This document shows positions 28,491-31,137 of a DNA stretch of 64,000 nucleotides, one piece after another (within the stretch, counting starts at the first letter, position 1; every line of letters starts with the position of its first letter). The notes below the pieces were generated by a model. It saw only the letters and a list, made by a program, of their open reading frames with translations, made no database searches and had not been told where the DNA came from. Source of the stretch: an uncultured Acidobacteriota bacterium (GTDB lineage Bacteria > Acidobacteriota > UBA6911); NCBI GenBank assembly GCA_963843575.1, contig CAWJKZ010000015.1:1-64000 (forward strand). Direction: 5' to 3'. The position numbers and the translations under genes are program-made.

Positions 28491-29361
28491 TACAACCTCC
28501 GTATTTGGGGCGCGGCGACTGCCCCTCCTTCTAGAAAAGATTCAGAGAAGAATAAACAAAAAATGTTGTTAGAGAGGACTGCCTCAAAAGGGCGAAAACG
28601 CAATAGAGGCCGCGCGATTCTTCGCTTCCGGCTGTTGATGACGAAAGTGATGTTCCGACCGGGGAAAGTGTGGGCGAAATTGCGGATCGCAAGCAGATCA
28701 ACTTTCCAAGAGTCAACAAGGCGTTCGCTGAGAGTGCTTTCTTTCATTGCCCTGGCCGCCAGGTCCGTGGGGGTATGAGTCCCCGCTTCGGTGCCTTCAC
28801 TGAATCCTTGCCGCTTTCCGTACTCGGATACGCACTCGCTATGTGATGCAGGTTGGCGGATATATCGGCCGTAAGAATTGCCATCGCGCCAGCAATGGCC
28901 GCTGCGGTATTGAACAGTAGGTCACCGAGAAACGACTGAATGTTCATGTGCTTGGATTATCAGACAAATACGCATTATGAAAGCCCGCCCCGCGGAATCG
29001 GGATGGGCACAGTAATGGCGGCTGTCTGGCGACAGGCGAGGGGCTCTGCCCCTGACCCCGGGATTTTCTGAGGCATGGCTCTGGTGTCCGATAGATTAGG
29101 TGAGGCATCTGATGAATGTCATATGTCAGAGGCCTGATGCACCATCGGCGCACCGTCGGCCTGACTATCCCTTGCCAGGTTGCGTCCCCGCAGAGCCTGA
29201 CTCGGTTTCGCCAGGCGGGTTCAGTCTAGCACACAGGAAATTGCAGGTTGAAGAATCGGCGCGAGCTGTCGGGGAGATCCATTATGAAAAGAAGACGCTC
29301 CAACAGCGGTAAGATTGGTATCGGTGAAAAAAACCATTCCAAACCGTCGAAGGAGCGTCTG

Positions 29362-30417
29362 ATGAAAAAGTATATCGGCATGGATGTCCACAAAGCAACA
29401 ACGGTGATAGCGGTCATCAGTGAATCGGGCAGGTGGATTATGGACACCGTTGTTGAAACGTCCCCACAGGAAATCCTCGATTTCATCAACGGGCAGCGCG
29501 GGACGCTGCATGTCACTCTGGAGGAGTGTGCACAGGCGGCCTGGCTTTACGACCTGCTCCGGCCGCACGTCGCGGACGTGTTGGTTTGCGATCCACGAAA
29601 GATCGCCAGGGCAAGCAACAACAAGGCAGACAAGTCCGACGCCATGCGGTTGGCGGAGTTGCTTCGCACCAATGCCCTGAGGCGGGTCTATCATGGCGAG
29701 CAGAGTACGCAGGGGTTGAAGGAACTGACGCAAGGTTACACCTGCCTGATCTCGGACCGGACCCGCGTCAAAAATCGCCTGAAGGCTCTGTTCCGAGCCC
29801 GGGGAATCGCCTGTGAAGGCGCCGGAGTCTACAGCCTGGAGGAACGGGAACAGTGGCTGGCGAAACTGGACACGGCAGCGGTCCGTGCCCGGGCGGAGCG
29901 ACTCTGCACTGAACTGGACTGCCTCGAGTGTCTGTCTATAGAGGCAGAGCAGGAAATGACGGCCGAGGCACGGAAACATCCGGCGGTAAGGATTCTTCGC
30001 ACCATACCCGGAATCGGATTTGTCCGGGCAGCCGTCATTATCGGCGTGGCTGGCACTCCCCACCGTTTTCGAACCAAGAGGCAGTTCTGGAGCTACTGCG
30101 GCCTGGCGGTACGCACCGAGGCGAGTTCGGAATACAGGATCGTCGATGGGAAAGTCCTTCGATCCGGCAGGCGGCCACTTGTTCGAGGGTTGAATCAGAA
30201 CTACAGCCGTCCGCTGAAGTCGGTATTCAAGAGTGCGGCCAGGACTGTCGCCTCGGGACCATGGCGGTCGTATTTCGAGGCCATGATCGGAAACGGAACA
30301 CCCGAATCCCTGGCATACCTGACTCTGGCCAGGAAAATCGCTTCCATTACCCTGGCACTCTGGAAAAGAGGAGAACGCTATAGCGAGAAGAAACTGAAAA
30401 TGTCGCACGCGGCATGA
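29362..30417 (+). CDS. IS110-family DEDD recombinase/transposase
   Basis: YIGMDVHK, LEE, KADKSDA, TIPGIG and YCGL..EASS motifs; AAGGAG RBS. Confidence 0.95.
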   Translation: MKKYIGMDVHKATTVIAVISESGRWIMDTVVETSPQEILDFINGQRGTLHVTLEECAQAAWLYDLLRPHVADVLVCDPRKIARASNNKADKSDAMRLAELLRTNALRRVYHGEQSTQGLKELTQGYTCLISDRTRVKNRLKALFRARGIACEGAGVYSLEEREQWLAKLDTAAVRARAERLCTELDCLECLSIEAEQEMTAEARKHPAVRILRTIPGIGFVRAAVIIGVAGTPHRFRTKRQFWSYCGLAVRTEASSEYRIVDGKVLRSGRRPLVRGLNQNYSRPLKSVFKSAARTVASGPWRSYFEAMIGNGTPESLAYLTLARKIASITLALWKRGERYSEKKLKMSHAA

Positions 30418-30424
30418 GGCGTCT

Positions 30425-30790
30425 CGAAGGCTGACTGCACAAGTCGGCAAGGGTATTCCGGTTGAAACCCGAACGAGACGCGAGGTCGAGGGTGAGTCTC
30501 AAGAACGCCGTTAGGCCCGGAGCTGGAGTCTCCCAGATACCATAGGCCCCCTCGCATGACCAAATAAAGCAATAGGCTTCCAAGTCTCAGATAGGACCAT
30601 GGTCGGCAACATGGCCGCTGCGCTTTGAAAGTCTCGAACGGACCTGAATCCCGCTGCCCCTTACGCAGTCAGCTGCAATGACGGCAAGTGCAGGCGTCAA
30701 TCCATGAAGTGGTAGTGCAGGTTCGGCGGGGCAGCATTAACGAGCGTTGGCTGGATGTCGTGCACCGACAAAAAGCGCCCCCGTGCCTGG
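30425..30790 (+). ncRNA. Putative bridge/seek RNA
   Basis: Structured non-coding region (GCTGACTGC 30430 pairs with GCAGTCAGC 30665) containing a 9-nt match to the target flank. Ends approximate. Confidence 0.65.
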
Positions 30791-31092
30791 GGCGGAGAGA
30801 TTTGTCCTTGACATCCGCTTTCATAGGACGGCGTTCAGGGAAGCTATCTTGTGAAATGTCCTGAATCCAACCTGCCTTGGAAGTAATACATCAGACTTCG
30901 CCTTGCTTCTGTGGCTGCCAAAATACTACGCGTTTTCTAGCGGATGGGAAGTCTCCATCCCGGTCGAGGAGAAGCCGTGGTTGCCGATCGCTTGCCGATT
31001 TGTTTGCTGATTTGCGTGGAAAAGGGCGGAAAAAGGCGGCAAAACGTTATTAGAACCGCGTATCTTGTTGATTCCATTGGTTCTGGACCGAG

Positions 31093-31137
31093 CTGGCAGT
31101 CAGGAGGTCGCGAGTTCGATCCTCGCCAGCTCCACCA
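31093..31137 (+). repeat. tRNA-Ala(GGC) 3' half as an att core
   Basis: CTGGCAGTCAGGAGGTCGCGAGTTCGATCCTCGCCAGCTCCACCA starts at the anticodon loop, with no 5' half upstream. Confidence 0.85.

Follow-up and report, generated by a model that had tools for sequence, protein, structure and literature searches.

Where does the insertion sequence (IS) that lies between two AC dinucleotides in this contig begin and end, and does the non-coding DNA behind its transposase gene specify an RNA that selects the target? The stretch analysed, hereafter the window, is 64,000 nucleotides (nt) of an uncultured Acidobacteriota bacterium (contig CAWJKZ010000015.1, positions 1 to 64,000 of the forward strand), and the host genome comprises 27 contigs, 6.68 Mb in all, at 64% G+C. 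We conclude, with a probability of roughly 0.9, that positions 28970-30829 are an apparently intact insertion sequence of the IS110 family and IS1111 type, with a bridge/seek RNA after the transposase gene; it also appears to have been active recently. RNA guidance has been known since 2024, and the element is a further example of it, not a new principle. A preliminary description made from the letters of the window had named the kind of element correctly, including a guide RNA in the 3' non-coding region; its boundaries and several of its guide assignments are revised below.

The host genome holds six copies, five full and one interrupted. Two are of type A (the window copy and one on contig C9, which differ at 2 of 1860 positions), three are of type B, with about 85% identity to the window copy, and one, the interrupted copy C, is 71% identical to it. 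The transposase frame is open in all six. The block common to the copies starts at 28968-28970, about 308 bp to the left of the left end first proposed, and ends at 30835-30836. Because site-specific elements drag conserved target bases into comparisons between copies, uninterrupted sites were sought. In paralogous regions on contigs C22, C24 and C14 the 300-bp flanks of copy B1 stand side by side, separated by exactly 2 nt; the site on C22 (C22:49685 onward) reads ...CAGGAGAA-AC-GGCGTTGTGGCGG..., its AC being followed by GGCGTTG. The empty sites contain a single AC, and therefore insertion adds the body and one AC. The core dinucleotide is AC at both junctions (28970-71 and 30828-29), and GGCGTT(C/G) to the right of the element is target, not element. 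The boundaries are as follows.

28963-28969, plus strand: left target flank of the window copy, GACAAAT
28970-28971, plus strand: core AC of the left junction; one AC lies between the flanks in empty paralogous sites
28972-30827, plus strand: insertion-sequence body, 1856 bp, or 1858 bp with one core
28976-28984, plus strand: left subterminal inverted repeat TATGAAAGC, 9 bp, reverse complement of 30817-30825
29278-29291, plus strand: inner degenerate left-end-like motif TCCATTATGAAAAG
30817-30825, plus strand: right subterminal inverted repeat GCTTTCATA, 9 bp
30828-30829, plus strand: core AC of the right junction, as in the empty paralogous sites
30830-30836, plus strand: right target flank GGCGTTC, host target, seen in the empty C22 site and two further paralogues

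The preliminary description took the inner motif for the left end. It placed the element at 29276-30828 with a core of GA and an empty target of GTCGGGGA-GA-CGGCGTTC, which would leave the 308 bp upstream to the host. The motif at 29278 does resemble a left end, and its distance to the transposase start, 84 nt, is near the 93-106 nt found in relatives that lack the leader module described below. However, not one copy starts at 29276; the six genome copies and a copy in a genome of the same genus share sequence from 28968-28970 on, between unrelated flanks, and the inner motif has no AC core in A and B (copy C has ACGCATCATGAAAAA at its position). The empty sites, which lack the 308 bp and give AC as the core, refute this anatomy, and we assign it practically no chance of being right. 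The proposed left end was thus off by 306-308 bp, an illustration that an inner copy of an end motif can mislead boundary calling. Since insertion adds the body and one AC, GTCGGGGAGA and TCCATT lie inside the element, and therefore the AATGGA match claimed for a fourth guide segment and the poor match reported for the second were measured against the wrong sequence. Elsewhere in the genome, at C4:45984, CATTATGAAAACAAGACG is similar to the inner left-end motif and the start of the leader, and may be the remnant of another related element.

The right boundary requires a separate decision. Similarity among the copies continues to 30835-30836 in all five A and B copies, and Siddiquee et al. (PMC11187229) remark that conserved target bases are often mistaken for IS ends, and vice versa. 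GGCGTT(C/G) might accordingly be a terminal extension of the element, in which case the segment at 30503-30511 would be a donor guide, not a target guide. We hold this to be very improbable, since the uninterrupted site on C22 has GGCGTTG without an element, and since what follows the right-end AC varies in step with the 30503-30511 segment in relatives and in copy C.

The protein identifies the family.

29362-30417, plus strand: transposase gene, 351 amino acids (aa), DEDD type; AAGGAG at 29350-29355 lies six bases 5' of the start

In Pfam, PF01548 (DEDD_Tnp_IS110) matches residues 5-144 (66.5 bits against a cut-off of 29; 3e-18) and PF02371 (Transposase_20) matches residues 210-273 (49.9 bits against 21.3; 4.3e-13), so that the N-terminal DEDD/RuvC-like domain and the C-terminal Transposase_20 domain of the IS110 family are both present. 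The NCBIfam model NF033542, "IS110 family RNA-guided transposase", covers residues 4-338 at 160 bits against a cut-off of 140. Among solved structures only the transposases of ISCro4 and IS621 are related, and weakly so (phmmer E = 1.6e-7 and 8.9e-5, respectively), with the C-terminal part alone above threshold. In the alignment with ISCro4, CGLAVRTEASSE stands opposite AGLTPRRYESGS at the G..P....S(T)G motif; serine falls on serine, with V in place of P and S in place of G. Relatives have S followed by A, S or G at this motif. Features of the IS1111 group are also found: the length of 351 aa suits the 330-350 aa quoted for the group, the 9-bp inverted repeats are subterminal, lying 4 nt and 2 nt inside the cores, and 410 nt separate the stop codon (30417) from the right core, with a structured guide RNA within them.

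The guide RNA was examined among 79 related loci from Acidobacteriota, Myxococcota and others, whose transposases are 39-91% identical. Its parts in the window are these.

30474-30636, plus strand: conserved structured core of the bridge/seek RNA, about 163 nt, from CGAGAC (30474-79) to GTCTCG (30631-36)
30503-30511, plus strand: g1, target guide GAACGCC-GT (GAACGCCGT), reverse complement of AC-GGCGTTC, the right-hand target
30532-30540, plus strand: g2, left target guide CCCAGAT+AC, in the sense of left flank plus core; CCTTGAA+AC in sub-family B
30563-30570, plus strand: AAUAAAGC, candidate guide for the right donor; it lies in the second loop, on its 5' side, and is not preceded by AGTCTC
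30591-30597, plus strand: left donor guide ATAGG+AC, in the sense of right end plus core

The region 30474-30636 is almost invariant between A and B, with six differences in elements that differ by 15% overall. Three of the six fall in 30532-40 (A CCCAGATAC, B CCTTGAAAC) and the others singly at 30524, 30613 and 30622. Relatives share one plan in the region downstream of the gene. A stem (CGAGGG/CCCUCG) and a second short stem lead to the variable g1, a hairpin and the variable g2; the closing strands of both stems follow, and then a third stem (GACC/GGUC) that encloses a conserved A-rich segment, a second hairpin and the segment ATAG(G/A)A(C/G). When 22 Acidobacteriota sequences were aligned, the drawn helices had 88.8% of cells paired, compared with 33-50% when the partners are slid, and 8 of 23 pairs have changed on both sides. 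None of 500 shuffles reached the observed covariation score. RNAalifold independently recovered helices P1, P2 and P3 and the donor-loop hairpin; the compensatory changes in P1, P2 and P3 are accompanied by conserved G-U pairs. The predicted fold of the RNA has two internal loops, and a small hairpin splits each of them. Relatives from two phyla have this common architecture, with a core of AC or AG, and the alignment could be used as a covariance alignment for an IS1111-type bridge RNA absent from Rfam 15. The conserved structured core, at about 163 nt, is shorter than the RNA of some 400 nt at first envisaged.

The motif AGTCTC, which the preliminary description reported at 30495, 30527, 30583 and 30630, is indeed present at all four positions. 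It has 17 matches in the window on both strands, against 27.8 expected, yet four of the nine plus-strand copies lie within 141 nt. Their proposed role as leaders of four guides does not hold, however. The four copies are helix strands in three roles: the first is the 5' strand of P2, which in relatives is GAGUAUC or GAGCAUC and is matched by compensating changes on the facing strand, two are the 3' strands of both loop hairpins, and one is the 3' strand of the outer stem. AACGGA does follow the fourth copy, but this segment is part of that outer-stem strand, not a guide; it matches neither the true ends nor the flanks, it pairs with 30474-79 in the minimum-energy fold, and relatives lack AGTCTC at its position.

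As first observed, GAACGCCGT (30503-30511) is the exact reverse complement of ACGGCGTTC (30828-30836), and this first segment is a target guide. ACGGCGTTC or its complement occurs three times in the 64 kb, against 0.96 expected, and two of the three are inside the element. The match of g1 to AC+GGCGTTC is 9 of 9 in four of the five A and B copies and 8 of 9 in B1. Copy C serves as a control within the same genome: its g1 is GTAAGCGGT (GTAAGCG-GT), its right flank is CGCTTAC, a perfect match, and its g2 of TAACTT-AC faces a left flank of GGCTT-AC. The second segment had been described as a poor match to the left flank; at 30532-40 it matches the true left flank plus AC, the agreement with CCCAGAT being 4 of 7 in the window copy (GACAAAT) and 6 of 7 in the C9 sister copy. 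Flank position -1 tracks g2: it is T in each of the two A copies and A in each of the three B copies. The genome contains a natural series, in which three guide variants (A, B, C) are accompanied by flanks that change with them and by uninterrupted paralogous targets.

The same pattern extends across about 50 related loci, in which guides and flanks covary. The counts include only loci whose ends were recognised by patterns, loci with no recognisable end being excluded; as the loci are kin, the contrasts between own and cross pairs overstate independence and are descriptive, not formal tests. The comparison of g1 with the right flank draws on 50 loci, which gave 38 unique pairs and 23 guide types; the mean match is 6.42 of 9 for own pairs and 4.33 for cross pairs, and scores of at least 7 of 9 are reached by 21 of 38 unique own pairs and 20 of 800 cross pairs. 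For g2 and the left flank (33 loci, 17 unique pairs) the averages are 5.12 of 7 and 1.81, and 12 of 17 own pairs score at least 5 of 7, compared with 0 of 81 cross pairs. A metagenome-assembled genome (MAG) in which a 49%-identical relative occurs 15 times provides an example, with junctions GATATGGGGC-AC-GCATAATAAAGG and CCCTTTATAGA-AC-CCTCGATTGG, g2 CATGGGGCAC, g1 TAAACGAGGGA and a third segment of ATAGAAC. The two matches of the window RNA, 30503-11 to the top strand and 30532-40 to the bottom strand, overlap at AC, and the top-strand match lies 5' of the bottom-strand match. The same order is reported for IS1111-type seekRNAs (PMC11187229).

The third segment is a donor guide. ATAGGA is present at 30591-30596 and at 30823-30828, as the preliminary description had it, and the segment is identical to the right end plus AC. 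In 48 of 50 loci the donor-loop 7-mer agrees fully with the final seven bases of the right end, counting the core, and it does so through five variants (ATAGGAC, ATAGAAC, ATAGAAG, ATGGAAG and ACAGAAG). For the right donor guide, 30563-30570 is a weak candidate: AAUAAAGC could pair with the left-end top strand GCATTATG at 6 of 8 positions, discontinuously and with a constant A-A mismatch, and one position covaries across families (T:A, C:G, G:C).

Several observations weigh against reading the element as an RNA-guided IS of this type. The serine motif of the transposase is SS, the usual form being SG. In the host genome the left-guide match is short, at 3-6 of 7. The right donor guide, with its mismatch, fits two multi-copy families badly. 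The target-loop hairpin is poorly supported, with 59.7% of cells paired, and variable insertions partly misalign it. A single-sequence fold of the 3' region is not above shuffles (z = -1.44) and mispairs the loops, which is the reason that the comparative structure was relied on. Rfam holds no matching family for the guide RNA, whose membership rests on our own alignment; scanning the entire region, and each non-coding end separately, at E up to 10 gave chance matches only, among them matches to miRNA and snoRNA models. Finally, a search of public RNA runs listed none that contains the element.

The last point, together with the DNA signal TTGACA in the right end, would suit an account in which the 3' region acts only as DNA, as protein sites for the ends or as a promoter, and the flank matches reflect a preference read by the protein, no RNA being involved. 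Such an account leaves the compensatory changes and conserved G-U pairs of P1, P2 and P3 unexplained. It is also at odds with guides that are directed at opposite strands and share the core, an arrangement known from experimentally proven systems, and with the match of the transposase to the NCBIfam model of RNA-guided IS110 transposases. We therefore think it very improbable, and prefer a bridge/seek RNA.

By analogy with IS621, ISEc11 and ISKpn4, a complex of recombinase and RNA would bring the junction of a circular form (right end-AC-left end) to an NNNAT-AC-GGCGTTC target, with the target-guide pairings overlapping at the core and strand exchange at AC. Position 30563-70, the 5' side of the donor loop, would probably pair discontinuously with the start of the left end. 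The expected circle junction is ...CATAGG-AC-GCATTATG.... This scheme presumes that the RNA is made and processed, that the transposase binds it and that circles form. The guides would presumably be open to reprogramming, and "programmable" is a term that the element would deserve by analogy with its family. Joining of the ends would also bring together two hexamers.

30808-30813, plus strand: TTGACA, -35-like hexamer of the right end that faces outward; 50 related loci conserve it
28973-28978, plus strand: CATTAT, -10-like hexamer, which in a circle would lie 17 nt after the TTGACA of the right end

To judge from the sequence, TTGACA and CATTAT may form a junction promoter in the circle. A promoter scan of the linear element found no sigma-70-like site, and a promoter formed only by joined ends is given as a trait of the family in PMC11187229.

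Choice of target differs among the loci. The element in the host genome targets plain 12-14-nt sites, of which C13:87038 and C13:535298 are candidate unoccupied examples. Relatives in other MAGs (L012-L025, L009-L011, L017 and L026) insert into palindromic repeats that resemble repetitive extragenic palindromic (REP) sequences. In L009, L015, L020 and L043 the last ~17 bp of the right end (ATCCCCCTTTATAGAAC) are tandemly duplicated before the target flank. The same-genus genome (L008/L096) carries a 91%-identical copy in which the transposase frame is broken, with 63 aa to the first stop and two tblastn pieces; its guide RNA is intact and has a left guide of its own, CCCTGAA-AC. In copy C the guide RNA is split just 3' of the left target guide by a 1350-bp insert (C10:639697-641046, L006/L007), probably a further insertion sequence, whose terminal inverted repeats are CTAGCAGGATGCTGAAA. 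A second partial copy is found at the end of contig C18.

The left end holds the only part of the element that might be new. The distance from left end to start codon is 392 nt in the clade of the window element, compared with 93-106 nt in relatives, and the additional sequence includes a conserved module.

29028-29227, plus strand: structured RNA module in the left-end leader, about 200 nt, with strong covariation and no Rfam match

This module is more strongly conserved than the transposase gene among A, B, C and the same-genus copy. A search of the host genome with an nhmmer profile found it only in the six IS copies, and a covariance model (R1) found it in 17 of 51 genomes of the family. 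Across 28 matches, 87.7% of cells are paired, against 37-40% when slid, although the alignment was fitted to the covariance model, which favours structure; 37 of 46 pairs have changed on both sides. Several G-U pairs are conserved, and these point to the plus strand. Rfam scans at E up to 10 gave no match to the module, and viral contigs gave no match to its conserved 31-nt pattern. A limited literature search found nothing relevant on a described leader RNA in Acidobacteriota or IS110 elements, a result that does not show the motif to be unpublished.

In the window element the module lies between the outer left end and the inner decayed one; elsewhere in Acidobacteriota it is found behind solitary left ends, or with no IS sequence nearby. 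An IS left end lies 58-90 nt upstream of it in 9 of 20 foreign loci (eight by pattern, L108 by eye), and a transposase homologue lies downstream in 4 of 21 foreign loci searched. Other foreign loci adjoin varied genes, among them a reverse-transcriptase fragment, an IS3 transposase and an AAA_25 protein. Two more neighbours, judged by eye from N-terminal residues, we take to be an extracytoplasmic function (ECF) sigma factor and a UDP-GlcNAc 2-epimerase.

Two interpretations of the module were rejected. A second, IS110-style bridge RNA is countered by a core that is nearly invariant in A, B and C though their targets differ, and by the occurrence of the module without any transposase. A small protein gene is unlikely: the variable hairpin has indels whose lengths are not divisible by three, and L089 lacks the ATG. 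The module may be an undescribed class of RNA outside the basic IS1111 plan, a suggestion that we rate as doubtful. One possibility is a hitch-hiking module carried along with, or spread by, the RNA-guided recombinase, as ssr9 is with ISPpu9; alternatively, it could be a regulatory leader adopted by several mobile and non-mobile genes.

Beyond the right flank, 45 bp of the window (31093-31137) duplicate the 3' part of a tRNA-Ala(GGC) gene. Rfam scores this stretch as the 3' end of a tmRNA, and the tmRNA-like match at 31067-31137 is this tRNA 3' half. The gene is intact at C10:617055-617130, and C10:625415-625459 is a third copy; the copies look like att-site duplications of integrated elements. 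Two of the three tRNA-Ala copies have a copy of the IS nearby, at 263 and 265 nt; the similar spacing was taken as coincidence, the intervening DNA being unrelated.

The closest known systems are the IS1111 seekRNA elements ISEc11, ISKpn4, ISPa11 and ISPst6 (Siddiquee et al. 2024, PMC11187229). Like the window element, they have a DEDD transposase of ~330-350 aa, subterminal inverted repeats, a long non-coding region downstream of tnp, overlapping target matches on opposite strands and a promoter at the joined ends, which for the window element is conjectural. The likeness is one of description, not of compared sequences, and the host here is an acidobacterium. The window element differs in its plain target of 12-14 nt, where the targets of the seekRNA elements are REP sequences, attC or a transposon end, in the long left end (392 nt before tnp) with its extra structured RNA module, and in the serine motif SS.

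The bridge RNA of IS621 and the IS110 group (Durrant et al. 2024, PMC11208160; Hiraizumi et al. 2024, PMC11208158) likewise has a target loop and a donor loop; its right donor guide is discontinuous, as the candidate in the window RNA would be. The IS621 RNA is in the left end, whereas the window RNA is at the 3' end; the guide order within each loop is reversed, each loop of the window RNA is split by a hairpin, and the core is AC here and CT in IS621. The proteins are only distantly alike, and handshake guides were not identified in the window RNA. A third parallel is ISPpu9 with its small-RNA module ssr9 (Pares-Guillen et al. 2025, PMC12288879): this too is an IS110-family element with an RNA module that is also found without a transposase. 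There ssr9 lies downstream of tnp and forms circles of its own, whereas the module of the window element occupies the leader of the left end, flanked by the outer and inner left-end motifs.

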